This document shows, one piece after another, positions 20,765 to 59,350 of a stretch of DNA of 64,000 nt; the first letter of the stretch is position 1, and each line of letters starts with the position of its first letter. A program made the translations under genes and the position numbers. The DNA is from Octopus vulgaris (lineage: Eukaryota): the NCBI GenBank assembly GCA_951406725.2, contig OX597822.1, forward strand, positions 106,330,001 through 106,394,000, written 5' to 3'. Below the pieces are notes generated by a model. It made no database searches, was not told the DNA's origin, and worked only from the letters and a program-made list of their open reading frames with translations.

Positions 20765-21991
20765 TTAGGTCGTCACGTATGAAATTTGTAGTAAGATATA
20801 TGGTAAATTCTAACAGCTGCACATTTTACGCCATTATTATATTTTGACATTCTTTATTTTTTGTTAGAAAGCTGACGCATCTATTTCTTTATTCTAACTC
20901 ATATTGCGCTTTATAAAGTATTTATAAATCGGTTTTTTTTCCCCTGTTTTTGTTTATAGTTGGATAAGTCGGAAATTTGTACAGTTTTCAAATATGAGTT
21001 CTTCCTTGGAAACAGATCATCACAGACAGCTTGGAATATTAATGGAGTATTTCATTCTAATGTTATTACACATTGGGCAGCATCAAATTGGTTAGCAAAG
21101 TTTCGTTCTGGCAACTTTGACCTCACAAATGAGCAAGCGGTCGACCAGAAACAAAGATGCATAATGACGAACTGAAAGCCACCGTCGAGTCAGATCCATC
21201 CCAAAGTGCCCCTGAATTATCGTTGTTGTTTGGTGTTAGCAAGCAAATAATATTGACTCACCTAGTTCAAATCGGCAAGGCGAAAATGTTGGATAAGTGG
21301 GTTCCACCAGAACTCAATGAAAATCAGAAACAGCAACGTTTGGAAGTCTACATTATGCTACTTTCTCGTCACGAAAATGAATCATTTTTTTAATCGAATT
21401 GTAACGTGATGAGAAATGGATCCAATACAACAACCGTAAACGTTCAGCATAATGGTTCGACAAAGACGAGCCATCAAAACACAGTCCAAAAAGCAAAATT
21501 CCTCCAAAGAAGCTGATGGTATATGTTTGGTTGTCTGGCGCATGTGTGATCCATTATAATTTCATTAAACCTGGCTCATCAATAACGGCCGAAGTATACT
21601 GCAGCCAACTGGACCAAATGATGCAGAAACTCGCAAAAAGGCAGCCTAGATTAGTAAACATAACCACTCCTATTTTATTGCAAGTCAACGCCAGACTTCC
21701 CATCACAAAAATGACATTGGCGAAACCACTGAAGTTGGAGTTGGAAGTTCTCCATCAACCACCATACTCACCTGATCTTGCCCCCGATGACTACCACTTC
21801 TTCCAGAATTTGGATTTATTGACTCTAGATTGCCAGGCTTTTACAGTTCCGGGCTAGACAGGCTACCGCTGAAATGGCAAAACTGTATTGACAATATGGG
21901 TGCACACCTTGATGAATAAAGCTATTCCTTGTTTTTATAAAACATTAACAAACTTCTTTTCTTTTCTACAAATTTCATACTTGACGACCTA

Positions 21992-23133: not shown

Positions 23134-24642
23134 AAGCCGGCTTGTTCCCTCGGTTGTATATATATTAAGCCGAGAAGGTTGAAAGAGCTTGATATATATA
23201 TATATATACATGCGCGCGCATATATATGTATACTAATATATACATACGCACACTCACACACACACATACATGCATATACATTTTGAGGGTTTAGATCGGT
23301 ACAGTTGTTGGAAAAAATGCTGGAAACCCCTAGTTAAATGGAAGTTTTATTTAATACAAATTCGGTCAGTATTTGGTATCAATCACAGCTTTAATGCATC
23401 AAGCTTTAATCCGTCCAAATTAGTCTTGTGGAACCCACTTCATGGTAATGAAAATGTCGACAAACTTACAGAAGGGGAAAATATTGTCAAATCTACAGAG
23501 TGGCTGTGTGGTAAGTAGCTTGCTAACCAACCACATGGTTCCGGTTTCAGTCCCACTGCGTGGCATCTTGGACAAGTGTCTTCTGCTATAGCCCCGGGCC
23601 GACCAATGCCTTGTGAGTGGATTTGGTAGACGGAAACTGAAAGAAGCCCATCGTATATATGTATATATATATGTATATAAGTGTGTGTGTGTATGTTTGT
23701 GTGTCTGTGTTTGTCCCCCTAGCATTGCTTGACAACAGATGCTGGTGTGTTTACGTCGTCGTCACTTAGCGGTTCGGCAAAAGAGACCGATAGAATAAGT
23801 ACTGGGCTTGCAAAGAATAAGTCCCGGGGTCGATTTGCTCGTCTAAGGGTGGTGCTCCAGCATGGCCGCAGTCAAATTACTGAAACAAGTAAAAGAGTAA
23901 AGAGAGTGACCACTTGGTCGCAGACAATGGCCTGGAATGTATATCCAGGAACTCGAAGCTGTGATGTTGGATCGAGAAGTGTGGCGGGTGGACCTTGTTG
24001 CTACGGCCCGGGTTGGTTGGAACCCAACCATAATAATAGATAGTGTTGTTAAGAGGATTTGTGAGCAATTCTTTCAGCGAAGATGGTGGACAGGAGCAGC
24101 TCCTCAGCTCCTGCAGCAGTCCCCGACTTCCTACGCAACCGCTGAGCCTTGATGCGCATTCATCCATCCGTCGATACTCTCGGTGTCGGGGGTTGACCAA
24201 TCCAAGTGGTATTCTTCGCTTCTGCGTTCTTTGTACCAATTTTAAATAACATTAACCGCGAGAATCGGCACATTATTTTTTTCTAGGAGACTGTGTTACC
24301 ATCTTGGAATAATGTTTGTACCACAGGATGGACATAATCAGCCAAAATACTTGGATAATCCTTGGCATTAACTCTGCGATGTAGAACACCTAAAGGGCTA
24401 AGAGAATTCAGTGATATCGCTGTCTAAATCATCGCAGAGCTATCTCCATACTTCACAGTAGGGAACTCCGATGTCGAAGGAAAAAAGATGAATATTGATT
24501 TTCCAGAGGTGACATTATTCCAATGAGCCATTGACCATTTCTGGTAGTTTGCACACCATTTTTTTTTTCTCTTTGCTTCTCAATGTTAATGGGGGACACG
24601 AGAGGTTTCAGCAATTGCAGCCTTCTCACGGTATCCACCTCT

Positions 24643-24926
24643 ATAAGGCGGCGAGCTAGCAAAAACCCTTGTGGGTAGTAGAGAAATAGGTATTATAAGG
24701 TGAGCTGGCAGAATCGTTAGCACGCCAGGCGAAATGCTTAACAGTATTTCGTCTGCCGCTACGTTCTGAGTTCAAATTCCGCCGAGGTCGACTTTGCCTT
24801 TCATCCTTTCGGGGTCGATTAAATAAGTACCAGTTACGCACTGGGGTCGATATAATCGACTTAATCCGTCTGTCTGTCCTTGTTTGTGCTCTCTGTGTTT
24901 AGCCCCTTGTGGGTAGTAAAGAAATA
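24643..24926 (+). mobile_element. Family-1 SINE insertion (one internally deleted copy plus one full copy)
   Basis: TSD ggtatccacctct at 24630-24642 and 24927-24939. Confidence 0.85.
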
Positions 24927-25221
24927 GGTATCCACCTCTGCGGAGCTCACAATGAACGGCTTTGGTTGACACAGAGTTGGCAAGTGATGGTATAGCTTTG
25001 CCAGCGCTTTTGCAACCGTCGTCATATTGTTTTTAGACACAACGCATTTCACTATCCTGTGCTCCTTCTCTGAGTGATGCTTGCCAAAACATCGCTTTGG
25101 AATGTGTGCGTGATTTTAGAGACTATATTTCTCGAAACATAAAACAATTCAGTGGTTTTAGTGTCTCAAGTTCCAGTAATCCGTGCGCCCTTTGGAAATC
25201 AGATAGGTCATGCATTTTAAC

Positions 25222-26450
25222 TTATGAGGGAGTACCCAAAAGAAACCGGAATTTTGCAATGTTATTTTATTCACTAAATTTTACATGTTTACACTTTTTT
25301 ATTATCTTCAAAGTATTTTCTAATTTGAAGCAATGCATCGGACCAAATACGTTTTCCACTGTAGGAAGCAGTGCTGGAACTCTTGCGAAGTGATGCCTTT
25401 TAACGACACCTCCATCGTTTTCTTCTTCATCTCTTCCACATCTGAAAATTCCGTAGCACCAGCCTTCGTCACTAGTTTGGAAGCACTCCGTCGGTTACGA
25501 CGACGAGGGTTCCGGTTGATCCGAATCAACGGAACAACCTGCTCGTGAAATTAACGTGTAAGTGGCAGAGCACTCCACAGACACGTGTACCCTTAACGTA
25601 GTTCTCGGGGATATTCAGCGTGACACAGAGAGTGACAAGGCCGGCCCTTTGAAATACAGGTACAACAGAAACAGGAAGTAAGAGTGAGAGAAAGTTGTGG
25701 TGAAAGAGTACAGCAGGGATCACCACCATCCCTTGCCGGAGCCTCGTGGAGCTTTTAGGTGTTTTCGCTCAATAAACACTCACAATGCTCGGTCTGGGAA
25801 TCGAAACCGCGATCCTACGACCGCGAGTCCGCTCGTCACTAGTAATGATCTTCGAAGAAAGAACTGGATCAACTTCCAACTGTTCTTTCAGTTCACGATA
25901 CGCGTTCAGTCGTGTCTGCTTTTGATCTTCCGTGACTAAGTGAGACACAAATTTCGCTGCAACTCTTTTCATTTGCAATTCCTCGCTCAAAAATCGTTGG
26001 CAGGGACTCCAGTACGCACCAGTCATATCAACAAGTTCGTCAATTTTTCGGTGACGGTTCTCCAAGAACAGTTTATGACTTTTCACGGTGTTTTCATTCG
26101 TTCGAGAGGTCGACGGTCGTCCTGAACAAGACTGGTCTTCAAAGGACAAGTGACCGTTCGTAAATCGTGAAAATCACTCGTAAACTTGTTTTGCTCATGA
26201 CAGCGTCCTTGTAAGCTGTTTGAAGCTTGGCAGCTGTTTCGGCCACCGTTTTCCTCAGCAGAAAACAGAATTTTGATGGAAGCACTACAAAACAAAGATG
26301 AACCACGTGGAAGTACGATCATACACGATGACGCCGGTCGGTAGACTGATACCCGAGTGTTACATAAAGTGGGTTCTAGCGGTGGAAGCCTGAACTACAA
26401 CGGCTTTGTCCCAGGGAGAACGTTTCTGATTACATTTGAGTACCTCCTCA
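25222..26450 (-). mobile_element. Internally deleted mariner element interrupted by a SINE
   Basis: Ends tatgagggagtacccaaa / tttgagtacctcctcata. Encodes SGRPSTSRT...ELQMKRVAAKFVSHLVTEDQKQ. Confidence 0.75.
25477..25832 (-). mobile_element. Family-3 tRNA-derived SINE, 5'-truncated
   Basis: Near-identical to 35563-35939. TSD tcgtcactagt at 25466-25476 and 25833-25843. Confidence 0.85.
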
Positions 26451-26569: not shown

Positions 26570-27160
26570 TGCTTTCAAATTTTGGCACAAAGCCAGCAAT
26601 TTCGGTGGAGAGATTGATTATATCACCCCCAGTGCTCAACTGGTACTTATAAGGCAAAGTCGACTCCGGCAGAGTTCGAACTCAGAACATAAAGACGGAC
26701 GAAATACCTATTTCTTTACTACCCACAAGGGGCTAAACACAGAAGGGACAAACAAGGACAGACAAACGGATTAAGTCGATTATATCGACCCCAGTGCGTA
26801 ACTGGTACTTATTTAATCGATTCCGAAAGGATGAAAGGCAAAGTCAACCTCGGCGGAATTTGAACTCAGAACGTAGCGGCAGACGAAATACCGCTAAGCA
26901 TTTCGCGCGGCGTGCTAACGATTCTGCCAGCTCGCTACTTTAATAATAATCTTTTCTACTCTAGGCACAAGGCCCGAAATTTTAGGGGAGGAGGCTAGTT
27001 GGATCGACCTCAGTACGCAACTGGTATTTAATTTATCAACCCCAAAAGGATGAAAGGCAAAGTCGACTTCGGCGGAATTTGAACTCAGAACGTAAAGAAA
27101 GACGAAATACCGGTAAACCTTCCGCCCGGCGTGCTAACAATTCTGCCCAGCTCGCCACCT
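26570..27160 (-). mobile_element. Cluster of family-1 SINEs, one nested at the GGTA site of another
   Basis: Repeated gaaaggatgaaaggcaaagtc blocks. Further clusters at 28960-31640 and 51780-52540. Confidence 0.8.
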
Positions 27161-27891: not shown

Positions 27892-30139
27892 TAGATATAT
27901 ATATATAGATATATATATAATCCCATTGAAACAGCTGTAGAGCACAAATGAATGAAGAATTATATGTGAAACATGCATTTCTGAACTATCATTTTAACCA
28001 ATGCTATATATACATGTAAGTTTATTCCACCAGGATTTGGGCACCATAACAATGTGCTGGAGTTTAATGATGTTTTGTTAATTGACCTCTTAATTATCAT
28101 GGATATATTTTATGGTTATACACAAACTCAAAATATATACATGTGTGATAAAATGATGTAGCAATATATAATTAACAAATGCTAATTAACTTCAGGCTTA
28201 ACTCCCACTAATTACAAAAATTCAACATGTTATTACATGTTATACCAAAAATGAAAAAGTCATCAATCATTTTCAAAATTAATTAAGGTAATTAAAAATT
28301 TCTTAATCGTTCCCATGTCAATTGACTTAACATTTTCCCTGCTACACATGACATCTTAGCCAAATTTTCTAACAGACTATTAATCAATTAAAAAAAAAAC
28401 ATTTATTTCATTTCAAGATTCTAAACCTGATTCTAAAGCTTTCAAGAAATGTAGTGGAAAAAATATTGCTTTATTTCTTTATTTATTCCAGTTGCATGGA
28501 ACAGTTTGCCACAGGAAGGGGCTAGAAATGTCCATTCTCTAAGAGGAAAAGAATTAAGAAACATGAGTGTTCCAAGAAGAGAATATATACTAAATATTTT
28601 CAGATAACGAATGTCACACTGAGATATATTTCTTCTCCCCAAAATGTTAAAGTATAACAAATCATGATAGGTTTTCTCTTTGCAAAATTCCTCAAATTCT
28701 GTCTTTTCTTGCCTACACAGACCATCTTGAATCTGTAAAAGTATCAAAACTGCATTTCTTTTCCTTTTGCCATTAAATTGAATTTCCTATTTTTTAAATT
28801 AATACACCCACCAAAGAAAACAAGTGAGAAACTGGTGATGTTTAATTGTCTATTTTAGATTCATACACTGCAGATCGCTGCTAGTTTTATATAAGTAACT
28901 GGCAAAGTGAAGGTGGCCAAGACATTATAAAATATCAACATAATAATGAAAATAATAATTATCTTTTCTACTGTAGGCATAAGGCCTGAAATTTGGGGGG
29001 AAATTTGGGGAAAGGGGTTAAGTCAATTACATCAAATCCAATGTGTAACTGCTACTTTTTTAATTGACCCCAAAAGAATGAAAGGCAAAGTCAACCTTAG
29101 TGGAATTTGAACTTGGAACATAGTGACAGGCAAAATACCGCTAAGCATTTCATCCAACATGCTAACAATTCTGCCAGCTCACTGCCTTAATAATAAACTT
29201 TTTTACTTATAGGCACAAGGCCTGGATTTTTGTGGAGAGGGAGATGATCACATCGATCCAGTTACTCAACTGGTACTTAATTTATTAACCCCCAAAAGGA
29301 TGAAAAGCAAAGTCAAACTCAGCAGAATTTGAACTCAGAACATAGTGACATATGTATATATATGTGTGTGCGTGTGTGTGGTTGTGTGTCTGTGTTTGTT
29401 CCCCCCAACATCGCTTGACAACTGATGCTGGTGTGTTTACGTCCCCGTAACTTAGCGGTTCAGCAAAAGAGACTGATAGAATAAGTACTAGGCTTACAAA
29501 GAACAAGTCCTGGGGTTGATTTGCTTGACTAAAGGCGGTGCTCCAGCATGGCCACAGTCAAATGACTGCAACAAGTAAAAGAGTAAAAGAGAGAGTATAT
29601 TTTATCAAACCCTGAAAAGATGAAAAGAAAAGTTGACCACAGCAGAATTTGAACTCAGAAATGTATGGAACTGGAACAAATACTGCAAGACATTTTTTCC
29701 AACGCTCTACCAATTCTGCCAGCTTGCCACTTTAATACCGGGTTCAAATCTAAGCACAAGACCAACGACTTTGAGGGGAGTGGATCAAGTTATACAGTCG
29801 ACCCCCAGAGGAATGAAAAGCATATATAATCTCAACAGGATTTGAATTAAGAACATGAAAAGATAGAAATACTGCAAAGTATTTTCTCTGATTAACCTGC
29901 TGCCTGCATATGATAATAATAATTCTTTCTACCAGGGGTACAAGGCCTGAAAGTTTAGAGGAGGGTGCTAGTTGATTACCTCAACCCCAGTATTTCACTG
30001 GTACTTATTTTATCAGCCTTGAAAGGATGAAAGGCTGAGTCAACCTCAGCAGAATTTGAACTCAGAATGTACAGACAGATGAAATGCTGCTAAGCATTTT
30101 GTCCAGAATGCTAATGATTCTGCCAACTCCCCACTTTAT

Positions 30140-30174
<35 letters not shown>

Positions 30175-30713
30175 CAGGCAGTGGCTCTCGTGGCTTCTGA
30201 TCTTAACTGATTGGAAGTGTTATCATGTACATTGTTTTGTCTTGGTATAAAAGATGGGCTACAGCAAATATTCTGCTCAATACCACAGATTTGCTTGTCA
30301 GTTGTTTGACCTTAACCAGTTGAGCATGTCCCTTAGTGGCTGACGATATGTGCAACTCTAATCACGAGCAGAAGTAGTGGGGGAGCATCAGAGCCATGAG
30401 TTGAGAGGGATTCTTTGGGATTTGAATAATTCACCTCTGGAAACATGGGTGGTTCTTTCAACATCCTTAAACAATCCTTATTCATGGACCCTTTGAGCGG
30501 GATGGGCTACACGACCAGAAGAAAATTCTAACTGGGCCCCACCTGCAAGGTCATGCGCTGTTTATCTTGATATGAGATCACCATGTTGCGCACATATGGT
30601 TGCGATGCATGTGCCTGGTGTGCCCTTATCAGATGGGTAGTCTTGGTGGGTATACTGGGCTTCGTATATTTTACCCCAGTGTCACTTTGATGGCATGCAC
30701 TGCTCTCTCACTC

Positions 30714-30714
<1 letters not shown>
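30175..30714 (+). mobile_element. Non-coding retroelement fragment flanked by (AAT)n, possibly an R4/Dong-type 3'UTR
   Basis: A 540-bp higher-GC block with (AAT)n on both sides. TAA-repeat targeting is known for Dong/R4 elements. No ORF is present to confirm this. Confidence 0.45.
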
Positions 30715-30752
<38 letters not shown>

Positions 30753-31834
30753 TCTTTCTACTAAAGGCACAAGGCCTGAAATTGCGGGAGAGGGGGCTAG
30801 TTGACTGCATCAACCTCAGTGTTTCACTGGTACTTGATTTATTGGCTCCAAAAGGGTAAAAGGCAAAGTCAACCTCGGCGGAATTTGAACACTGAATGTG
30901 AAGGTGGACGAAAGGCTGCTAAGCATTCTGCCCAGTGTGCTAATGATTCTGCCAGTTCGCCAATAATGAAAAGTTTCAAATTTTGGCACAAGGCTACCAA
31001 TTTCAAACGAGAAGACAAGTTGATTACAACAACCCAAGTGTTCAATTGCTGTGTATTTTACCAACTGCACAAAAAGGATGAACAGCAAAGTCCACCTTGG
31101 CTGGATTTGAAATGAGAATGTTGCAGCCGGAAGCATTAATTAATATGTTTCTGTCAGTTCATAATAAAAATAACTGTTTCTAATACATGCCGGAAAGTTT
31201 AGGGGAGCAGGGAGGTAGGGGGGGGGTGGCTAGGCGATTATACTGATCCCAATGTTCGGCTGGTCCTTTATTTAATCAACCCCAAAAGGATGAAACACAA
31301 AGTCCACTTCAGCAGAATTTGAACTCAGAACGTAAAGAAGGACGAAATACCAGTAAGCATTTTTTGTCTGGATTAGTAACAATTCTGCCAGCTCATAATA
31401 ATAATAATAATAATAATAATGAGGGTTTCAAATTTTGGCACAACAGGCCAACAGTTTTTGAGGGGAGGGGAAGTTGATTACATCGACTCCAGTATGTAAT
31501 GGGTACTTATCTTATCAACCGTGAAGGAATGAAAGGCAAAGCTGACTTTGGCTTAATTTGAGCTCTGAATGCAAAGACAGACAAAAAAAATGCAAATAAG
31601 TATTTTGTCCAACATGCTAACAATTCTGCTGGTTCATAATAATAATAATAATAGTAATAATTATAAAAATAATAAAGATAATAATAATGCAATTAGTTAG
31701 ACTATAAGACATACAGTTTTAAAAAATCCCACAGATTTGGATGTTCAAGGAGAAAAAAAAAAAAGAGAAAATAACCATTTGATTAAATTTGTTGCTCAAA
31801 GAATATGGTAAAAATACAATGGTAATGGTGGCAC

Positions 31835-35939: not shown

Positions 35940-37038
35940 TCCCATTATCATCATCATCATCATCGTCGTCGTTTAACGTCCGTTCTCCATGCTAGCATGG
36001 GTTGGACGGTTCGACCGGGAATCTGGGAAGCCAGAAGGCTGCACCAGGCTCCAGTCTTATCTGGCAGTGTTTCTACAGCTGGATGCCCTTCCTAACGCCA
36101 ACCACTCCGTGAGTGTAGTGGGTGCTTTTTACGTGCCACCAGCACAGGTGCCAGGCGAGGCTGGCAACGGCCACGGTCGGATTGGTGTATTTTATGTGCC
36201 ACCGGCACGGAAGCCAGACGAGGCAGTGCTGGCATCGGCTACGAGTCGGATGGTGCTTTTTACGTACCACCAGACCAGGGATCATAGAAATATATTTATT
36301 ATAGAGTAACAGAAAGAAAAAAAAAATACAAGAATCAAAGGGAAATAACTCAAATGAACCAATGGCATGAACTGCGATAAATAAGTAGCAGGGTGATGCA
36401 TTGAATACCATACAATAATTCTTAATAGCAATTTCCCAATCTAGCAGCAACTGTTACAAGGGAGATAATTTCAAGGAATTAATTTTTCACAATTAATCTA
36501 ATTAATTTATCATTGAGGCTTTCTATTTTTATTCTGTTTCTAATTTCATGCATTTGATTGTGGTCATGCTGCAGCACCTCCTTCATATTGACCTCAGTAA
36601 TGATTTTAATATAAATCTCTTAAAGTTTTTTTTTTTCTATATGAATAGGATGAAACAACAAATATAACCTTTATTTGCCAGGAAGGGATAACTATGCACA
36701 TGTTCCAGCCCATTACACCTTATTAGCATAGCATAGTCCACTCAAGCCTGCTTGTTGATCAGCTGACAAAGATTTTTACATGTAGAATGAGTTATGTATA
36801 AGTTATGGCCAATATAATTTGCATAGCTAAAAAAATAATTTTAGAAAATGAGCTAAGGGAACTAACTCAAATAAATCAATGACAAAAATTTGAATAAATA
36901 AATTAAGAGGTCATATACTGAATGCCAATATGCAAATTCCTAATTGAAATCTTCTCAGTTGGAGAAAGAGGACAAAAACCTAGCGGCAATTGTTAGCAAG
37001 TCTAAGAAGAAGGGAGATAATTTTAATATAAAGAAATT

Positions 37039-40465: not shown

Positions 40466-40836
40466 TATATTTCTTTACTGCCCACAAGGGGCTAAACACA
40501 GAGGGGACAAACAAGGACAGACAAAGGGATATAGTCGATTACATCAACCCCAGTGGGAAACTGGTACTTTATTTATCGACCCCGTTAGGAAGGGCATCCA
40601 GCTGTAGAAACATTGCCAGATAAGACCGGAGCCTGGGGCAGCCTTCTGGCTTCCCAGATCCCCGGTCGAACCGTCCAACCCATGCTAGCATGGAGAACGG
40701 ACGTTAAACGATGATGATGATGATGATGAAAGGCAAAGTCGACCTTGGCGGAATTTGAACTCAGAACGTAGCGACAGACGAAATACGACTACGCATTTCG
40801 CCCGGCGTGCTAACGTTTCTGCCAGCTCGCCGCCTT
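40466..40836 (-). mobile_element. Family-1 SINE interrupted by a family-4 3' fragment (40585-40728)
   Basis: The (TGA)n tail of the insert merges into the host's gatgaaaggc. Confidence 0.8.
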
Positions 40837-42297
40837 TAACGGGGTAGAAAACAGCAACCACTCTCCCACGCATCACTCTTTTCAAACTGATAGACACATG
40901 CACAGCAGAAATAGCGGTAAAATTCTGAAGAGAGACAACTCTGATCCTTGTCTTTTCCGTAATATGAGTTGCCTCCCCAAAATGGTATCCGAGAAAGCAA
41001 TAAATTTTTGTCTACTTTTCATATATTTTCATTTTTTTTTTCGTTTTTTTTTTTTTTGTTACTGGTTTCAATTATAATGACCAAATTGAGAATCTGCTAC
41101 AAAGGGTTATATCGACCCCAGTACCTTACATAATCGATTCTGTTTGTCGAACGGTGTCTCACATGCACGCGTGCATATCAATATATCATCATCATCATCA
41201 TCATCTTCATTTAACGTCCGCTTTCCATGCTAGCATGGGTTGGACGGTTCAACTGGGGTCTGGGGAGCCCGAAAGCTGCACCAGTCCAGTCAGATCTCGC
41301 AGTGTTTCTACAGCTGGATGCCCTTCCTAACGCCAACCACTCCGAGAGTGTAGTGGGTGATTTTATGTGCCACCGACACAGGTGCCAGACGAGACAGGCA
41401 AACGGCCACGCTCGGATGGTGTTTTTTATGTGCCACCGACACAGGTGCCAGACGAGGCTGGCAGACGGCCACGCTCGGATGGTGTTTTTATGTGCCACCG
41501 ACACAGGTGCCAGATGAGGCTGGCAAACGGCCACGATCGGATGGTGTTTGTTACGTGCCCACAGCACGGAGGCCAGTCGATGCGGTACTGGCTACGGCCA
41601 CGTTCGGATGGTTTTCTTGTTTGTGCCACGTGTCACCGGCACTGGTACCACAAAGATACAAATTCCATTGATATATACAGTAATACCTCGCTATATTGCA
41701 GTTCACCTATCGCGGTTTAATATTTAAGCTTATGTTGAATTCTCCGTGGTGTTGTTTTGCATTGATAATAAAATAAATTAGATTTTTTATTATCATCGTT
41801 TAACGTCCGTTTTCCATGCTAGCATGGGTTGGACGGTTCAACGGGGGTCTGTGAAGGCAGGAGGCTGCACCAAGCTCCAGTCTGATCTGGCAGTGTTTCT
41901 ACAGCTGGATGCCCTTCCTAACACCAACCACTCCATGAGTGTAGTGGGTGCTTTTTACATGCCACCGGCACAGGTGCCAGACGGGGCTGGCAAACGGCCA
42001 CGATCGGATGGTGCTTTTTATGTGCCACCGGCACGGAACAATTTTTTTTAAATATACAACTGAAAGAAGTCCGTTGTATATATATGTGTGTGTGTTTGTG
42101 CCTGTATGTGTGTGTTTGTGCCTGTGTTTGTTCAACCAAATAAGAAATAAGTGGAAATTTTACCGGTGAATGTGTTACATTATAAGGCACAAAAAGAAAA
42201 TGACTCTCCCCGAGACACAACAAAATATTCTATTGTTTCCCACTAATTAATTCTCAAAAATAGATAAAAACGAGTCGCTAGCGCAGCTTCTTCTTAC

Positions 42298-43578: not shown

Positions 43579-44453
43579 CTCTACAGTAAGGGATCGACGC
43601 CCCCGCTCCATTTATACACACACACACACACCCGGTTCCCCATGGCACGGGAAGAGATACCATAACATCACCGAGGGTAGATTAAAAGATAATTTTTTAA
43701 AAACTTGGTTAACAGAAGAGAGACAAATGTGCGAATAAAGTAGACTAAGGGAGATAACTGTCGGTGAAAACTAGTCGCCAGGCGAAATACTGAACAGTAT
43801 TTCGTCTTCCGCTACGTTCTGAGTTCAAATTCCGCCGAGGTCGACTTTGCCTTTCGTCCTTTCGGGGTCGATAAATTAAGTACCAGTTATGCACTGGGGT
43901 CGATATAATCGACTTAATCCGTTTGTTTTTCCTTGTTTGTCCTCTCTGTGTTTAGCCCCTTGTGAGTAGTAAAGAAATAGGTATGGTTGCCCAATTAATT
44001 TAATATTGAATTTAATATTAAGTAGCACGAAATTTTCAAAACATAAACGGATAATGTGTTAGAACGAAGCCCATCCAGAAATATCCTTTTGCTCAGATGT
44101 TCTATTTTTTGCACATTTTCTACAAACGGATGCCCATTTTGCCTTCAACAACTTTATCGAGTATCTTTTACCTATTTTTCTTTCCAATACAGACCTTCGC
44201 TAATTATTTCCTTAACACCATGTTACCACATTTCCATTACAATACACAGCCTTTACTTTAATTAATTTTTAAAATAATGAAGAATTTAGTAAACTATTGC
44301 CCCTAGAATTGTTTCCCCTACCATAATTTTTGAGGTAACAAAAAATATGAGCACCTAGTATTTTAAAACTGTTATAACTTTCGTTGTATGAAGTGTACAG
44401 ACGTGATATTTTTTCCATTGTATACTAATAAAGGAATGGATGAGGAATATTTG

Positions 44454-44866: not shown

Positions 44867-45509
44867 AGACCTTCGCTAATTGTTTCCTTAACACCATGTT
44901 ACCACTTTTCTATTACAATACACAGCCTTTACTGTAATAAATTTTTTAAAATAATGAAGAATTTAGTAAACTATTGCCCCTAGAATTGTTTCCCCTACCA
45001 CTGTATTATTTTTGAGGTAACAAAAAATATGAGCACCTAGTATTTTAAAACAGTTATAACTCTCGTTGTATTAAGGGTACAGACCTGATATGTTTTTTTT
45101 CCTTTGTATACTAATAAAGGCATGGATGAGGAATATTTTGATACAATACATTATATTCTGTATATAGTAACAAAAATTTTTAGGACAATATAAACGGAAA
45201 CTTCATTCAACCCTAAGGAAAAATACCTCTCATAAATGTATAAAAGACAAGACACTCAACTCTCATCTTCCCATCACCCTTGCTTGGGCTAATTCTATCC
45301 CAAACTGAGTGCTTTTTTCAATCCTTCATTTTCATCATCATCATCATCAACATTTAGCATCCATTTTCCATGCTAGCATCAGTAAGATGGTTTGAATGGT
45401 GGTAGTAAGCTAGAGAGCTGCACCAGGCTCCGGCCGTCTGTTTTGGCTTGGTTTCTACAGTTTGATGCCTTACTAATGCCAACCACTTTACAGAGTATAC
45501 TGGGCGTTT

Positions 45510-45895
45510 TTACATGTCATTGGCACAAGTGCTTTGTACATATCACTGGCACAGGTGCCTTTTATATATTACTGGCACAGGTGCCTTTTAAGTATATCAT
45601 TGGTGTGGGTTCCTATAATGTGCCACTGGCACAGGTGTCTTTTACATGTCACTGGCAAAGGTGCCCTTTATGTGTCACTGGCAGGAATGCCTTTTAGATA
45701 TCAGTGGCACAGGTTCCTCTAATGTTCCACTGGCACAGGTGCCTTTAACATGTCACTGGCACAGGTGTCTTTTATATATCACTGGCATGGGTTCCTTTAA
45801 TGTGCCACCAGCACAGTTACCTTTTACATGTCACTGGCATGGGTTCATCTAATGTGCCACCAAAATGAGTGCTTTTTATGTGCCACTGGTACTGG
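45510..45895. repeat. Degenerate ~29-bp minisatellite inside a family-4 element
   Basis: About 13 units of tg(t/c)cactggcacaggtgcctttta. Confidence 0.8.
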
Positions 45896-46758
45896 CCATG
45901 ACCACAATTCACTTAGTATGGCATGTCTTCTCAAGCGCATAAATCGCCAGAAGTCTTGGTCACTTGTCATCTTGTCCAGAAATGTAGCTCTATGAAATAA
46001 TCTCTTGCTGACGTTGTTTAGCCTCGGGTCAATCCTGATCAAGAGGACCCACAATCAAAGACATTCCAACTGTTACCATCTCAACTTTGAGAGGTATACA
46101 ATATTACTACTACTACTATATTTCCTTCTTGGGACACAAAAGTCTGCTTGCGAAGACCTGTTGAGGCAAGTGAAATCGAAATCGATCAAAAATCAATGGA
46201 AATTGTAGTTGTGATACCAATGCTGGTGGCATGTAAAAGAACCATCCAAACGTGGCCGTTGCCAGCGCTGCCTCAACTGGCCTCCGTGCTGGTGGTACGT
46301 AAAAAGCATCAACCAATCATGACCGTTGCCAGCCTCCCCTGGCACCTGTGCTGGTGGCATGTAAAAAGCATCCATTACACTCATGGAATGGTTGGCATTA
46401 GGAAGGGCATCCAGCTGTAGAAACACTGCCAGATCAGACTGGAGCCTGGTGCAGCCTCCTGGCTTCCCAGACCCCAGTCGAACCGTCCAACCCATGCTAG
46501 CATAGAAAGCGGACGTTAAACGATGATGATGATATTATCCAAATAAATGTGTAATGGGGAGGGGGGTTCATAGTATTTTCTCCTTGTCGCCGCCCAGTCT
46601 GTTGCAAATATACAGGGTAGGTCTCTGCTTTGAGGATTGCTTGCTCCTAACCTGGTCGAGATGGTCCTGGAGTGGATCTAAGCAAGCAGCAAAGACAAAG
46701 TTTTAACAAAGAAGACAATGGTTTGAAAGTGAATGACAAAATAAGATTGTATATTTAC

Positions 46759-46986: not shown

Positions 46987-47882
46987 CGTGTGCTGGAACG
47001 AAGACAATTGCAGCATGGAAGGTGTTTATAAGCCATTTAAGAAACACATGCTGTGCTTAAGGAGACTCAGCAAGCGCAAGTGAGACCATAACCTTGTGGC
47101 CTGTGCCAGGGGTGTAACCAGTCCACATATGCGTGTCTTTCCTTCAGTGGACACTAAACTCCAAGTGAACTCGAAATCAAATTCGATGACTGGCATCTGT
47201 GCTAGTGGAGCGCTAAGAGCACCATACGAGTGAGATCGTTGCCAGAGCAACAAGCTAGCCTCCGTGCCAATGGCACATTAAAAACACCATTCAAGCGTGA
47301 TCATTACCTGCATTGCCTTACTGGCACTTGTGCTGGTGGCACGTGAAAAAACATTCGAGCGAGGTCGTTGCCAGTGCCACTGGACTGGCTCCTGTGCAGG
47401 TGGCACATAAAAAGCACCATTTGGGCGTGGCCGTTGCCAGTACCACATGACTGGCCCTCATGCCGGTGGCACATAAAATCACCCACTACACTCTCGGAGT
47501 GGTTGGCATTAGGAAGGGCATCCAACTGTAGAAACTCTGCCAGATCAGATTGGAGTCTGGTGCAACCATCTGGTTTGCCAGTCTTCAGTCAAATCGTCCA
47601 ACCCATGCTGGCATGGAAAGCGGACGTATAATGATGATGATGATGACAAAAACCGTTAGATTCACTTCAACATTTAAATTTAATTTGTCAAAATATTTTC
47701 ATCGCTTTGAGACCGTGACCTGTTCACTGACAAAACTGATGCAGCACGAAGTTTTGTCAGTGAACAGGTCGTGGTCACAAAGCGACGAAAATATTTTGAC
47801 AAATTAAATTTAAATGTTGAAGTGAATCTAACGAATTCTGTGTGTTTCTTAAATGGCTTATAAACACCTTCCATGCCGCAGT
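46987..47882. mobile_element. Family-B palindromic element with two divergent hammerhead motifs, interrupted by a family-4 element (47050-47645)
   Basis: Motifs at 47753-47803 (+) and 47734-47684 (-), each with a 7-bp stem I tttgtca/tgacaaa. Confidence 0.75.
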
Positions 47883-49702: not shown

Positions 49703-50059
49703 CTGATTTAGGGGAAACAAAATGAAAAATAAATCATGTTAGTTTGTCAATTGTGTGTTATTCTAATATTAATACATAACCACTTATAGGCAACAAACTG
49801 GCAGAATCGTTAGCATGCCTAATGATCTAAGGCAGTGAGCTGGTAGAAACGTTAGCACGCCGAGCGAAATGCTTAGTGGTATTTCATCTGCCGTTACGTT
49901 CTGAGTTCAAATTCTGCCGAGGTCGACTTTGCCTTTCTTCTCTTCGGGGTCGATAAATTAAGTACCAGTTACACACTGGGGTCGATGTCATCGACTTAAC
50001 ACCTATGTCTGTCATTGTTTGTCCCCTCTATGTTTAGCCCCTTGTGGGCAATAAAGGAG

Positions 50060-50263
50060 GAGGTTGAAACTGACATTTCAGAGTTCTTCGCTTTGAAACC
50101 AAAAGAGTTTTACATTGATGGGATTAAAAAGCTGGTAAATAGATGGAAGGAAGTCATAGATAATCAGGGAAAGTACATTGATGATTAAATTTCAATTGAA
50201 TATCACATTTGATCACTTGTTTTCTTTATTCAAAATTTGGACAGAACTTATGGGATGACCTGA
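50060..50263 (+). mobile_element. Mariner 3'-terminal fragment
   Basis: Encodes EFYIDGIKKLVNRWKEVIDNQGKYIDD*. TIR-like end acagaacttatgggatgacctgata. Confidence 0.75.
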
Positions 50264-51263: not shown

Positions 51264-52917
51264 CACTTTTTCTTTTTACGTTTGTAATTAAGATAGTTTA
51301 GCTTGTCTTGGTAATTAAAAGTTGCCTCATTGATTACAAAGACAAGTCAAACTGTCTTAATTACCGCTTCATGGTATATTTTATCATTTATAATTTTTTA
51401 TAGACATTCGAGTATTCCAGCATGTTTCTGTGTGGTTCCTGCATTTTGTACTGAAGATCGTTGGGTTTCAATTCGTGCGGTTAAAATATAAGATAACGGA
51501 TGTTGTTGACATGTCATGGTACATCTGGATAAAAGTTGAATCGACGAGAAAAAGTCTATTTTTCTAACCGTTCATCATCATCATTGTTCGACCGTGGTCG
51601 AGACGATGGAATTTACTATGCTATGCCAGACTTCACGGTCCATCATAACATTACGGAGGTCCTGTTGCAGGATGCCTGTATCCCTGGAGGTTAATCTCTA
51701 ACCGTTAACCTCACAGCAAAATTAAAAGCAAAAAGACACACAGATGTCTGTCATTATTATAATTGTAATAATAATAATAATAATAATAGGTTCAAATTTT
51801 GGAAAAGAGCCAGCTGTTTTTGAAAGGATAGAAGGCTAAGTACACTTAGGCGACATTTGAACTCAAACATTCGAAAGAAATGCAGCAAAGAATTTTGTCC
51901 GAGTTGCTAACAATTCTGCTAAGCTCGACGCCTTAATAATAATCCTTTCTACTAAAGGCACAAGGCCTGAAATTTAAGGGGAGAGGGACTAGTCGATTAC
52001 ACCGACCCCAGTGTTTCACAGGTACTTATTTACCTCGGCGGAATTTGAACTCAGAACGTAGCGCCAGACAAAATGTTGAAAAGCATTTTGTCCGGTGTGC
52101 TAACGATTCAATAATAATGGTTTCAAATTTTGGCATAAGGCAAGTTCGTGGGAGGGGGTAAGTCGATTATATCGACCCCCAGTGCTCAACTGGTATTTAT
52201 TTTACCGACCCCCGAAAGGATGAAAGGCAAAGTCGATCTCGGCGGAATTTGAAATAAGAACGTAAAGACGGAGGAAATGGTGCTAAGCATTTTGTCCGGC
52301 ACGGTAACGATTCTGCCAACGCACCACTTTAATAATAATAATAATAATATTGGTTCCAGTTTTTGGCACAAGGCCAGCAATTTTGCAGGAGGGGATATGT
52401 CGACTACATCGATCCCTAGTGCTTAAATGGAACTTATTTTATCGAACCCGAAGGCATTTGAACTCAGAATATAAAGACGGATGAAATGCCGCTAAGCATT
52501 TTGCCCGGCACGGTAACGATTCTACCAGCTTGCCGATGATAATAATAATGGTACTACTTGAGAACAGTGGTGCCGGTGCGCGCACTCGCGCAAGCTAGTC
52601 ATGACTAGTCGATCCTTACTTTGTGTTTTTGTGTTTTGTTTACTTTGTTTAACAAAAATTATTTACTTTATGTAAATAATTATTTATTTTGTGTTTTATT
52701 TACTTTGCTAGTAGGATCGACTAGTCACGACTAGCTAGCGCGGATGCGGGACTACGCGAGTGCGCGCACCGGGACCACTGATCTCAAGTAGTATACCAAT
52801 AATAATAATAATATTGAAGAAGAACAAGAACAAGAAGAAGAAGACATGGAAATAAATAGCGTTGAAGAAAAAATATTTAAAAAGAACCAAAAAATACAAA
52901 AAGGTATTCTTTTTTAC

Positions 52918-53357: not shown

Positions 53358-53376
53358 GTCCGGTATATGAATTACC

Positions 53377-54716
53377 TATTTCTTTATTACCCACAAGGGG
53401 CTAAACACAGAGGGGACAAACAAGGACAGACATAAACGGATTAAGTCGATTATATCGACCCCAGTGCGTAACTGGTGCTTAATTTATCGACCCCGAAAGG
53501 ATGAAAGGCAAAGTCGACCTCGGCGGAATTCGAACTCAAAACGTAGCGGCAGACAAAATACCTATTTCTTTACTACCCTCAAGGGGCTAAACAAAGAGGG
53601 GACAAACAAGGACAGACATAGGTATTAAGTCGATTACATCGACCCCAGTGCGTAACTGGTACTTAATTTATCGACCCCGAAAGGATGAAAGGCAAAGTCG
53701 ACCTGGGCGGAATTTGAACTCAGAACGTAGCGGCAGACGAAATACCTATTTCTTTACTACCCACAAGGGGCTAAACACAGAGGGGACAAACAAGGACAGA
53801 CATAGGTATTAAGTCGATTACATCGACCCCAGTGCGTAACTGGTACTTAATTTATCGACCCCGAAAGGATGAAAGGCAAAGTCGACCTCGGCGGAATTCG
53901 AACTCAAAACGTAGCGGCAGACGAAATACCTATTTCTTTACTACCCTCAAGGGGCTAAACACAGAGAGGACAAACAAGGACAGACATAGGTATTAAGTCG
54001 ATTACATCGACCCCAGTGCGTAACTGGTACTTAATTTATCGACCCCGAAAGGATGAAAGGCAAAGTCGACCTCGGCGGAATTCGAACTCAAAACGTAGCG
54101 GCAGACGAAATACCTATTTCTTTACTACCCTCAAGGGGCTAAACACAGAGAGGACAAACAAGGACAGACATAGGTATTAAGTCGATTACATCGACCCCAG
54201 TGCGTAACTGGTACTTAATTTATCGACCCCGAAAGGATGAAAGGCAAAGTCGACCTCGGCGGAATTCGAACTCAAAACGTAGCGGCAGACGAAATACCTA
54301 TTTCTTTACTACCCTCAAGGGGCTAAACACAGAGAGGACAAACAAGGACAGACATAGGTATTAAGTCGATTACATCGACCCCAGTGCGTAGCTGGTACTT
54401 AATTTATCGACCCCGAAAGGATGAAAGGCAAAGTCGACCTCGGCGGAATTTGAACTCAAAACGTAGCGGCAGACAAAATACCTATTTCTTTACTACCCTC
54501 AAGGGGCTAAACACAGAGAGGACAAACAAGGACAGACATAGGTATTAAGTCGATTACATCGACCCCAGTGCGTAACTGGTACTTAATTTATCGACCCCGA
54601 AAGGATGAAAGGCAAAGTCGACCTCGGCGGAATTTGAACTCAGAACGTAAAGACAGACGAAATACTGCTACGCATTTCGGCCGGCGTTGCTAACGTTTCT
54701 GCCAGCTCGCCAGCTC
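53377..54716 (-). repeat. Family-1 SINE tandem array: one head plus 7 x 184-bp units
   Basis: Units start at 53375, 53561, 53745, 53929, 54113, 54297 and 54481. 19-bp direct repeat gtccggtatatgaattacc at 53358-53376 and 54717-54735. Confidence 0.95.
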
Positions 54717-54826
54717 GTCCGGTATATGAATTACCGTTCCTGAAAACGCTCAGCAACAAAAAAAAGATTACATATTCTGTTGTGTCTGAGGAGGAGAGTA
54801 ATTTTCTTTTTGTGCCTTATAATGTG

Positions 54827-56951: not shown

Positions 56952-57526
56952 TCTTTATATATAAAAGAGAGGTTGTGTGTCTGTCTGTCTCCTACGATTT
57001 AGATTCCTAACTACTCCCACATTTTGCGGTGCAGTTTAACCAAAAGCGGGTATCCTATAGTCGTGATTCATATCGAGCCCTTCTGGGTATTAGCGCGCGT
57101 CTACGTTGAGTCAACGATTAAAAAAAAAAAATTACCATCATTTTTCCATTTTAATGCATTTTTGTCGCTATTATATAAGGGAAGTAACTCTCTAAAAATG
57201 TCTACGATGAGTCAACGATTTAAAAAAAAATTTACCATCATTTTTTTCCCATTTAAATGCATTTTTTTCGCTATTATATAAGGGAAGTAACTCTCTAAAA
57301 ATGTCTAAGATGAGTCAACGATTTTTAAAAAAAATTACCATCATTTTTTTCCATTTTAATGCATTTTTTTCGCTATTATATAAGGGAAGTAACTCTCTAA
57401 AAATGTCTACGATGAGTCAACGATTTAAAAAAAATTTTACCATCATTTTTTTCCCATTTTTAATGCATTTTTTTGCTATAACTCTCTAAAAAAGCTTATA
57501 TGGTTATTTCCCTTACAAACTGCTAG
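56952..57526 (+). mobile_element. Helitron-like non-autonomous element with ~4 x 102-bp internal tandem repeats
   Basis: A^TCtttatatataaaa 5' end and CTAG^T 3' end. Repeats start at about 57100, 57201, 57304 and 57406. No subterminal hairpin is evident. Confidence 0.6.
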
Positions 57527-57974: not shown

Positions 57975-58056
57975 GGTAGCTTGGCCGAGTGGTCTAATGC
58001 GCTGGTTTTAGGCACCAGCCTCTTCGGAGGCGTGGGTTCGAATCCCACCGCTGCCA
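57975..58056 (+). tRNA. trnL-UAG: tRNA-Leu(UAG), possibly a pseudogene
   Basis: 82-nt cloverleaf with long variable arm. Anticodon stem CTGGT/ACCAG with loop TT-TAG-GC, T-loop GGTTCGAATCC, and TTTTT at 58065-58069. Mismatches at acceptor pair 7 (T.C) and in the D-stem (AATGC). Confidence 0.85.
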
Positions 58057-58210
58057 CGAAATAATTTTTGAAGTGTAATCTATTAAACTTTTAGTTGTGG
58101 TGCACCTGAGCACTGTATTCAATAATTATTTTAATGAGGGCAAGAAGAAAAAAATCAAAAAATGAAAGAGAGACTCATGATAGTCAAACCACCAAATAGG
58201 TAATGTCAGA

Positions 58211-58800
58211 GGCGGCGAGCTGGCAGAGTCGTTAGCACGCCGGGCGAATTGCTTAGCGGCATTTCGTCTGCCGTTACGTTCTGAGTTCAAATTCCGCCGA
58301 GGTCGACTTTGCCTTTCATCCTTTCGGGGTCGATTAAATAAGTACTAGTTGAGCACTGGGGTCGATATAATCGACTTAATCCGTTTGTCTGTCCTTGTTT
58401 GTCCTCTCTATGTTTAGCCCCTTGTGGGTAGTAAAGAAATAGGTATTTCGTCTGCCGCTATGTTCTGAGTTCAGATTCCGCCGAGGTCGACTTTGCCTTT
58501 CATCCTTTCGGGGTCGATTAAATAAGTACCAGTTGAGCACTGGGGTCGATGTAATCGACTTAATCCGTTTGTCTGTCCTTGTTTGTCCCCTCTGTGTTTA
58601 GCCCCTTGTGGGTAGTAAAGAAATAGGTATTTCGTCTGCCGCTACGTTCTGAGTTCAAATTCCGCCGTGGTCGATTTGCCTTTCATCCTTTCGGGGTCGA
58701 TTAAATAAGTACCAGTTACGTACTGGGGTTGATATAATCGAATTAATCTGTTTGTCTTTCCTTGTTCTGTGTTTAGCCCCTTGTGGGTAGTAAAGAAATA
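58211..58800 (+). repeat. Family-1 SINE tandem array: one head plus 3 units
   Basis: Units start at 58258, 58442 and 58626. TSD ggtaat(g/t)tcagagg at 58199-58212 and 58801-58814. Confidence 0.9.
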
Positions 58801-59350
58801 GGTAATTTCAGAGGTGAAGAACCAACTCCGGTAATTATCAGAAATGGCTGGAAGAAACAGTACGGCGTGGCTCCTGTCACTGGATCCCTGAACCCGTGTT
58901 TATGAGTCTAAGGATTGTTATAAAATATCGGAAAGAAATTCATAAAAGAAATCAGATGAAATCCAAGGAAAAGAATATTTAGTTCATCAAAGTTATGTCC
59001 CTTAGATTAGAACTAAACAAGTTCACCATAATTACAGATATTTGCTTACAAGGAAATTTTGGGACGGATAAATGCGAGATGGAATAGAGGTGCAAAGACA
59101 GGTGGAGTATGTGTATGGGTTTGTATATTTCAAAGTTGGGTGTGGCATATCTTATATGAAAGAGCCAACGTTTATTTTTACGACTAGTTTACTAACATAT
59201 TTCTGCGCTTATACGAGCAGAAGCATAAGTCACCACTTTTGAAATTTAGATAGGCCCCTGAATGAAGGGATTTTTTAAAATATGATTATTTTATTTTTTT
59301 ATTTTTGGGTGGGGAGGGGGGCCGCTATGCAGATGAAGATATATAAATAT

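Follow-up and report, generated by a model that had tools for sequence, protein, structure and literature searches.

The window analysed here is a stretch of 64,000 nucleotides from Octopus vulgaris (contig OX597822.1), and all positions are counted from its first letter. On the minus strand, from 54735 to 53358, a head-to-tail array of a short interspersed element (SINE) reads, in this order, as a 19-bp direct repeat, ~50 bp of 5′ sequence, seven units, and the 19-bp repeat again. The features of this focal locus are the following.

54717–54735 (−), 5′ copy of the target-site duplication (TSD), 19 bp, starting with GGTA and matching the unit start at 12/16 positions
54667–54716 (−), 5′ piece of 50 bp that occurs once, with the A-box-like half of the tRNA-like head and the 5′ arm of the hairpin flanking the GGTA site
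53377–54666 (−), seven units, each with a B-box-like motif, the body shared by the family, and a 64-nt young-type tail
54666–54483, 54482–54299, 54298–54115, 54114–53931 (−), units 1 to 4
53930–53747, 53746–53563, 53562–53377 (−), units 5 to 7
53358–53376 (−), 3′ copy of the TSD, 19 bp, identical to the 5′ copy

Six units are 184 bp long and the last is 186 bp; the longest open reading frame of the locus does not exceed 93 residues from stop to stop. The initial annotation had proposed a head followed by n × 184-bp units at 53358..54735, which is borne out by the 50-bp 5′ piece and the seven units within a perfect TSD. The part that occurs only once is just the A-box half of the putative promoter. 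By the usual box consensus, the motif at 54704 (−) is A-box-like and that at 54641 (−) B-box-like, and the latter motif sits within each unit. We also observed that the 5′ junction (54709–54716, −) starts with a duplicated 8-mer of the head in place of the usual first bases, and that the sequence of the focal TSD forms a short inverted repeat.

The monomer of the family measures 236 bp at several loci, and head plus body gave 38 alignment rows across the 64 kb. Three different 3′ ends are attached to the same head and body: the 64-nt tail of the young type, and two tails of older type, both finishing in TAT runs. Compared with the SINEBase definition, the element is short (< 1 kb), interspersed and non-coding, and it was retrotransposed with TSDs of 13–19 bp at four of the eight young-type loci, a weak TSD being present at a fifth. 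The departure lies at the 3′ end, where 16 of the 17 young tails stop at a fixed A-rich 9-mer and a variable repeat is absent. The family works like a SINE, with the tested core features except the simple-repeat tail, and its density within the window makes genome-wide abundance likely. Each unit starts with a GGTA that directly follows the 4-nt loop of a 12–13-bp hairpin and belongs to its 3′ arm; the A-box-like motif stands on one side of this GGTA and the B-box-like motif on the other. The fold of the whole monomer RNA was not better than that of its shuffles (z −0.77), and only the local hairpin stood out. When the head was aligned to the tRNA-Leu of the window, the score was equalled by 14/1000 shuffles, and the head had no Rfam tRNA match at E ≤ 10; the body may resemble the CORE domain. 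We regard the family as a non-autonomous octopus SINE that is probably tRNA-derived.

The older TAT-tailed sisters form head-to-tail clusters at 28960–31700 (−) and 51780–52540 (−), on one strand throughout, in which each copy sits in the TAT tail of the preceding copy; head and body are shared, and two tail types occur. TSDs of these sisters are unreliable owing to slippage in the TAT runs. Neither the young tail nor the two older ones matched the one LINE-like 3′ end within the window, and the partner LINE was not found there. That 3′ end belongs to the remnant of a LINE-like ORF at 7990–8530 (+), which ends in ATTG repeats unlike the SINE tails, has no Pfam match, and is presumably CR1-like.

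The antisense pseudo-ORF of one copy was 83% identical to an uncharacterised protein of Octopus bimaculoides, the single protein match in that search; the family is thus an octopus repeat, also present in O. bimaculoides. A second search with the pseudo-ORF gave 16 matches, of which nine were examined. In the three matches spanning the tail end, all diverged, the Tyr-Leu pair predicted from the tail plus GGTA was kept in 0/3 and the Tyr in 2/3, and as a proxy for the 3′ flank these matches are too few and too diverged for counting flanks. A search of GTDB by tail pattern gave no match. By protein pattern, one of 491 candidate stretches was retained there, a 24-nt match (22/24) on a bacterial contig, which we treated as chance.

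Besides the focal array and the nested loci described below, the window holds these young-type copies.

58194–58814 (+), second array, head plus three units (58258–58441, 58442–58625, 58626–58800), with a TSD of 14 bp, or 19 bp with the AAATA that it shares with the tail
24630–24939 (+), monomer in unique DNA with a 13-bp GGTA TSD and, ahead of the full copy, an extra 5′ piece made of part of a head, the end of a tail and GGTATT
43776–43983 (+), 5′-truncated young monomer, followed by GGTA; 5′ copy of the TSD not found
40468–40838 (−), older young-type copy that breaks the GGTA rule, with a weak TSD (40851/40465), interrupted by another repeat
49828–50061 (+), young-type copy that has diverged and is altered at the end of its tail, without TSD

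An intact tRNA-Leu(TAG) gene (57975–58057, +) lies ~140 bp upstream of the 3-unit array. The extra piece at 24643–24694 (+), within the TSD of its locus, joins 23 nt from the head to 23 nt from the end of the tail, followed by GGTATT; the internal junction at 24688 reads tail-GGTATT-head, and the target there continues GGTATCC. The piece would result either from a jump of the reverse transcriptase to another template, an RNA with GGUAUU at its end, or from a second insertion at the 3′ junction of an earlier copy. The repeat that interrupts the 40468 copy (40590–40726, −) starts with CAT repeats and was inserted where the host SINE reads TTTCATC, another case of a match between tail and target; a similar sequence begins at ~32020. 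The 49828 copy abuts one of three remnants of mariner-type transposases (21453–21854, +; 25772–26173, −; ~50060–50160, +). The first is the only one with a Pfam match (PF01359, E 3e-17); the other two look mariner-type. Another dispersed repeat family, with internal tandem units of 62–68 bp and 26/52/104 bp, is a second SINE-like family from which tandem arrays could arise.

41356–41559, 36121–36273, 46221–46372, 47320–47478, 45508–45862, tandem units of this other repeat family

A 103-bp tandem repeat at 57099–57479 (3.7 copies, 91% matches) is unrelated to the SINE.

GGTA follows 15 of the 17 young tails. It could there be the element's own sequence, and the real test is the 5′ copy of the TSD. 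Of the eight young-type loci, four have strong TSDs (19, 14, 13 and 13 bp), all starting with GGTA, one has a weak TSD without GGTA (40468), and at three (the copies at 43776, 49828 and 26935) no TSD belonging to the copy could be detected. The strong TSDs are identical at 19/19 positions (54735/53376), 13/13 (4494/4856), 13/13 (24630/24927) and 13/14 (58199/58801), the last one at 18/19 when the common upstream AAATA is counted (58194/58796). Among random flank pairs, a score of at least 13 occurred in 9/2000, and the score of the 40468 copy (at least 8) was reached by 168/2000. GGTA therefore starts 4/5 candidate TSDs (P 2.5e-10, with GGTA at 339/127,994 background positions); with the nested case omitted, the count is 3/7 (P 6.5e-7).

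The initial annotation had listed the same four pairs, and its coordinates and GGTA starts were right. It had also placed three of them in unique flanks, and we found no decayed family copy in those flanks; decayed copies as targets were rejected for 6/6 flanks (best 19/200 shuffles). The rule-breakers that it had named, at 40466 and ~50050, are confirmed as the copies at 40468 and ~50061. Its GGTA in the head needs a restriction: the focal copy and those at 24743 and 43796 have AGTA at this site, and the one at 58258 has GGCA. AGTA in place of GGTA would fit CpG decay.

Two loci bear on insertion into the family's own site.

4426–5009 (+), nested locus, an older TAT-tailed sister with its own 19-bp TSD (4426/4991), whose GGTA site is split by an insert with a 13-bp TSD (4494/4856)
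4511–4617 (+), full-length U6 snRNA retrocopy (RF00026, 99.8 bits, model 1–105 of 105), the 5′ part of the insert
4620–4855 (+), full-length young SINE monomer, the 3′ part of the insert
26572–27160 (−), probable second nested locus, a young monomer (26935–26709) and then an older-type body from the GGTA site, with a weak outer TSD (27170/26571)

The insert at 4426–5009 is ordered as U6 copy, A-run and young monomer, and splits the sister exactly at the GGTA site. The outer TSD scores 11.5, and at least 11 was found in 7/1000 random pairs. The body past the young tail at 4856 is of the old type and differs from the young copy at 23/116 positions. Local duplication does not explain this locus, because the following body is old and ends in the other tail; the older-type body past the young tail at 26708 (same junction nucleotide, 19/98 mismatches to the young copy) rules it out there as well. 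The initial annotation had invoked insertion into existing copies, and the nested TSDs at 4426–5009 show one such event directly, so that insertion into the family's own GGTA site goes beyond inference. The U6 copy ends in an A-run that replaces the T-run and is fused 5′ of the young SINE; the insert is a U6-SINE chimera in a mollusc, enclosed within one TSD.

The locus at 26572–27160 is probably a second nested insertion, with the head of the older element probably at 27160; its outer TSD scores 6, which is common by chance. We dropped the reading of 26935–26572 as an old head with a young unit, as the head looks young, with 3/43 mismatches (P 0.026 under the old rate). Of the 339 GGTA sites, 17 belong to the family, and these received two of the six GGTA-ending insertions (P 0.033); with each array counted as one event, they take 4/8 (P 0.0004). 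Young copies thus insert at GGTA-starting sites with TSDs of 13–19 bp, the family's internal GGTA site included.

Two generalisations of the initial annotation hold in part. The junction GGTATTTC, said to be present at every array junction, is replaced by GGTATTTT in two of the eight self-array junctions. The head occurs once, as had been claimed, in both arrays; at 4426–5009 there are two heads, and at 24630–24939 a partial extra one.

Past the GGTA, too, the three unique-DNA targets are similar to the array junction. In the focal TSD, 8/12 positions that follow GGTA agree with the start of the unit, as good a match as in one of 248 background GGTA sites. At the 58199 site, the last five tail bases (AAATA) stand just upstream, as they do at 1/248 background sites, and the 24630 site pairs with the junction only via a bulge. 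In a post hoc test on n = 3 sites with RNA:RNA energies as a proxy, the unique targets ranked 3, 40 and 1 of 248 by duplex energy with the junction RNA (Fisher p 0.0015), and 0/200 guides with shuffled flanks were as good as the real junction. Over seven window sizes, the Fisher values were 0.0008–0.019, and shuffled guides matched in 0–2 of 60.

For the choice of target, the initial annotation had named a sequence-preferring endonuclease and GGTA microhomology priming. On these three sites, the comparison favours annealing between RNA and target over a bare 4-bp endonuclease preference. The pairing of upstream tail bases at 58194 and the bulge at 24630 would suit pairing better than read-out by a protein. 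On the simplest reading, an RNA that continues past the tail into the next unit would anneal to the nicked strand. The TAT-tailed sisters, found in TAT runs, are consistent with such a tail-matching rule.

An endonuclease with a longer preference is a live rival, and annealing and endonuclease may both act. In this account, which we consider unlikely, the endonuclease of the partner LINE would recognise a GGTA-centred sequence like the internal site, and the arrays would be a by-product combined with 5′ homologous joining. It agrees with the constant insertion point, right at GGTA, in 3/4 TSDs, with A or T at position +5 of all six GGTA-ending loci, and with the location of the site on the 3′ arm of a hairpin that might form in DNA too (−5.8 to −7.8 kcal/mol). 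Target-specific non-LTR elements are well known (PMC7265360), and the L1-Tx1 and Dong-R4 clades occur in octopus (PMC8967140). However, the match at 58194 extends into the tail, that at 24630 needs the bulge, and the TAT-tailed sisters, with the same head and body, lie in TAT runs and not at GGTA, meaning that the target follows the RNA end unless another LINE is used.

The two arrays differ in how their units are related. In the 3-unit array, the units differ from one another by 8–12/184, like dispersed copies (8–14 to four young monomers), and do so at variants that segregate among dispersed copies, which would fit separate templates. The focal units show on average 6.3 differences among themselves versus 14.7 to dispersed monomers, and units 3 and 4 are identical. 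At positions 24, 32 and 168 they have variants that none of the nine other young-type units shares, units 1 and 7 are unlike the interior at their outer ends (and unlike each other over their first 20 nt), and 5/10 informative column pairs are incompatible, so the array is a mosaic. By this pattern, simple serial insertion into one monomer is not sufficient for the focal array without later exchange. The private variants and the mosaicism suggest unequal exchange or conversion, either in place or in a source array that was then copied in its entirety. A source array is favoured by the perfect TSD, which also matches the unit start, and disfavoured by the T4 runs in units 2–5 and 7. In units 2 and 7, such a run stands right after GGTA, owing to a C-to-T change at unit position 8. 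Pol III stops at T runs; a stop at the position-8 run would yield an RNA ending in GGUAUUU, and the T4 runs of units 2–5 and 7 would hinder Pol III read-through of the array.

The initial annotation had considered rolling reverse transcription of a circular unit, which the patchwork of the focal units disfavours. In the fuller form of this account, cleavage within the hairpin loop, just ahead of GGUA, would release a 184-nt piece of the RNA; circularised or chained, this piece would be written out as an array at once by rolling or template-jumping reverse transcription. The position of GGTA right after the loop would suit such a cut, the U6 chimera and the 24630 composite show that RNA joining occurs in the family, U6-SINE chimeras arise via template switching in platypus and Anolis (PMC4476161), and the perfect focal TSD agrees with a single event. 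Nevertheless, one circle should give identical units, contrary to the incompatible column pairs of the focal array and the differences among the units of the 58258 array, and GGTA in the unique targets is left unexplained. We hold this account to be improbable.

A shade less probable still is recombination only, in which the head site and the 3′ TSD, through their GGTA microhomology, would give rise to a chance internal duplication that then expands by unequal crossing-over, with no targeted insertion. The private variants of the focal array and the contrast of its interior with the outer half of either end unit are the pattern expected of unequal exchange, and this route was proposed for the SINE-derived satellites of reptiles (PMC10702118). 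The initial annotation had offered unequal crossing-over as an alternative to insertion; in the focal array it appears to act in addition. Taken alone, it leaves unexplained why 5′ TSD copies within unique DNA carry GGTA, as well as the U6-containing nested TSDs, the inter-subfamily junctions at 4856 and 26708, and the unlike units of the 58258 array, and as the sole cause it is contradicted by the 4426–5009 locus. That the array or its unit number is an artefact of assembly is scarcely credible, since, apart from the identity of units 3 and 4, the perfect TSD, the exact register, the distinct variant combinations elsewhere, and the independent 3-unit array in the window all speak against it.

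We therefore lean, if only slightly, towards a model in which pairing-assisted insertion seeds the arrays and recombination reshuffles them later. The TSDs, the U6 chimera and the 5′ truncation suggest that the SINE is copied by a LINE via target-primed reverse transcription. Insertion at GGTA-starting sites is the first step and the one observed above; the site itself would be chosen largely through pairing, for which the support is moderate. The RNA of the young subfamily, with no simple-repeat tail or terminator of its own, would run on into the TSD or the next unit and carry GGUA(UUUCG...) just past the tail; this extension would anneal to the nicked target strand and prime copying. With a family copy as target, the top strand, once cut, would end in the first 11–19 nt of a unit, matching the new cDNA, and joining at these nucleotides would trim the incoming head, giving head + 2 × 184 in exact register. 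Annealing-type 5′ joining is known to trim the 5′ ends of LINEs (PMC4760211), and by this analogy homology-guided 5′ joining may operate here; the same product would also arise if the sequence between two adjacent heads were deleted. Within the window, head-once joining between two subfamilies has no clean case, as 26572–27160 has a weak outer TSD and other readings. The new junction would again be a perfect target and a source of guide-bearing RNA, closing a positive feedback loop. Finally, dimers would lengthen and homogenise by unequal exchange or conversion, a step whose pattern is seen in the focal array; its seven units would have expanded in place or would be a one-step copy of an already mosaic source array. 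Against the model stand the rank of 40/248 by energy of one unique site, the flank at 43980, a 3′-only case in which 2/12 extra positions match and 203 of 248 background sites are as good, and the 40468 and ~50061 copies that break the GGTA rule. The absence of the Tyr-Leu pair from the three protein matches, the three loci lacking a TSD and the failure to find a partner LINE in the window count against it as well.

The closest products known to us from the literature are the squamate satellites sSat1–3, whose units are likewise shorter than the SINE and end with one longer terminal unit (PMC10702118). In geckos and whiptails, sSat units are 3′ parts of 130–215 nt, and longer loci are more homogeneous; that paper invokes unequal recombination and mentions insertion at the same locus only in passing, and its main text contains the terms ‘TSD’, ‘target site’ and ‘template’ zero times (PMC10702118). 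The focal locus is a SINE-derived satellite by structural definition: five middle monomers are present where at least four are asked for (the 58258 locus has one), and the unit is a part of the SINE (184 bp out of the 236-bp monomer) with the 5′ extension occurring once. In contrast to sSat (PMC10702118), the octopus unit boundary is the retrotransposition target and the arrays are framed by TSDs. The double-insertion dimers of Drosophila transposable elements are also comparable, in that site preference makes dimers that can seed satellites and non-LTR dimers are joined tail to internal sequence (PMC5932611). As far as that report describes them, however, they have variable truncation points or a host-gene target (R1 in rDNA), whereas in octopus the junction is fixed at a single nucleotide within the element, and the unit includes the TSD.

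R1Bm reportedly relies, likewise, on read-through RNA annealing to its target. The proposed pairing is like that of R2Ol, where a 4-nt target extension of the RNA sets the start of reverse transcription (PMC6795142), and of SART1Bm, where similar pairing does so (PMC7265360); in both cases the pairing bases are a few target-matching ones at the 3′ end of the RNA. R2Ol, R1Bm and SART1Bm are, nonetheless, autonomous LINEs with sequence-specific endonucleases and fixed host targets (PMC6795142, PMC7265360). A single multicopy target, typical of the R1/R2/SART elements, was not found here, as 3/4 GGTA TSDs are in unique DNA, and the octopus SINE falls outside the strict class because it inserts widely.

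Ohshima and Okada reportedly described the octopus tRNA-derived SINEs OK, OR1 and OR2 in 1994. Our family resembles these and the octopus tRNA-Core expansion (PMC8967140) in its host group and high abundance; OR2 has been named a CORE SINE (PMC4758252). Sister families with a common head and body and different tails are also a trait of octopus tRNA-derived SINEs (PMC4758252, PMC8967140). We found no mention of GGTA targeting or 184-bp arrays in what these two papers report on octopus SINEs (PMC4758252, PMC8967140). The chimera at 4511–4855 is like the U6-SINE retrocopies in which a full U6 lies 5′ of a SINE within one TSD, and, unlike those of mammals and a lizard, has an A-run between U6 and SINE and a mollusc host (PMC4476161). 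In the open-access literature that we searched, we found no SINE that targets a fixed site of its own to build in-register arrays, and no paper on GGTA targeting, on these arrays, or on the coupling of SINE satellites with RNA-target annealing. SINE-derived satellites and RNA-target annealing are each known already; the coupling of both would be the new part.

A SINE that lands on a sequence it carries itself, and so piles up head to tail, provides a direct route from a dispersed element to satellite-like repeats, a question for which the reptile study, in its main text, gives products and no insertion mechanism (PMC10702118). The 64 kb show the steps side by side: a monomer, a nested insertion with both TSDs, a trimer and a heptamer. 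As the unit boundary is fixed to one nucleotide, the array question becomes countable in any octopus assembly.

We tentatively propose, as possible rather than probable, that the SINE is self-guided, its target preference being written in RNA and not in a protein, such that the TSD or junction becomes the 3′ extension of the next transcript and picks the next target. If so, the preference would perpetuate itself across insertions, and the internal site, as the best match, would turn dispersed copies into satellite arrays in exact register. If pairing sets the target, a SINE could gain and inherit a site preference while its LINE partner stays unchanged, and targeting set by RNA would bear on the origin of target-specific retroelements and on the use of RNA ends to program non-LTR insertion. 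SINEs account for ~40% of the transposon content of octopus (PMC8967140), and such a targeting rule, if true, would shape much of octopus genomes and confound counts and ages of their repeats.
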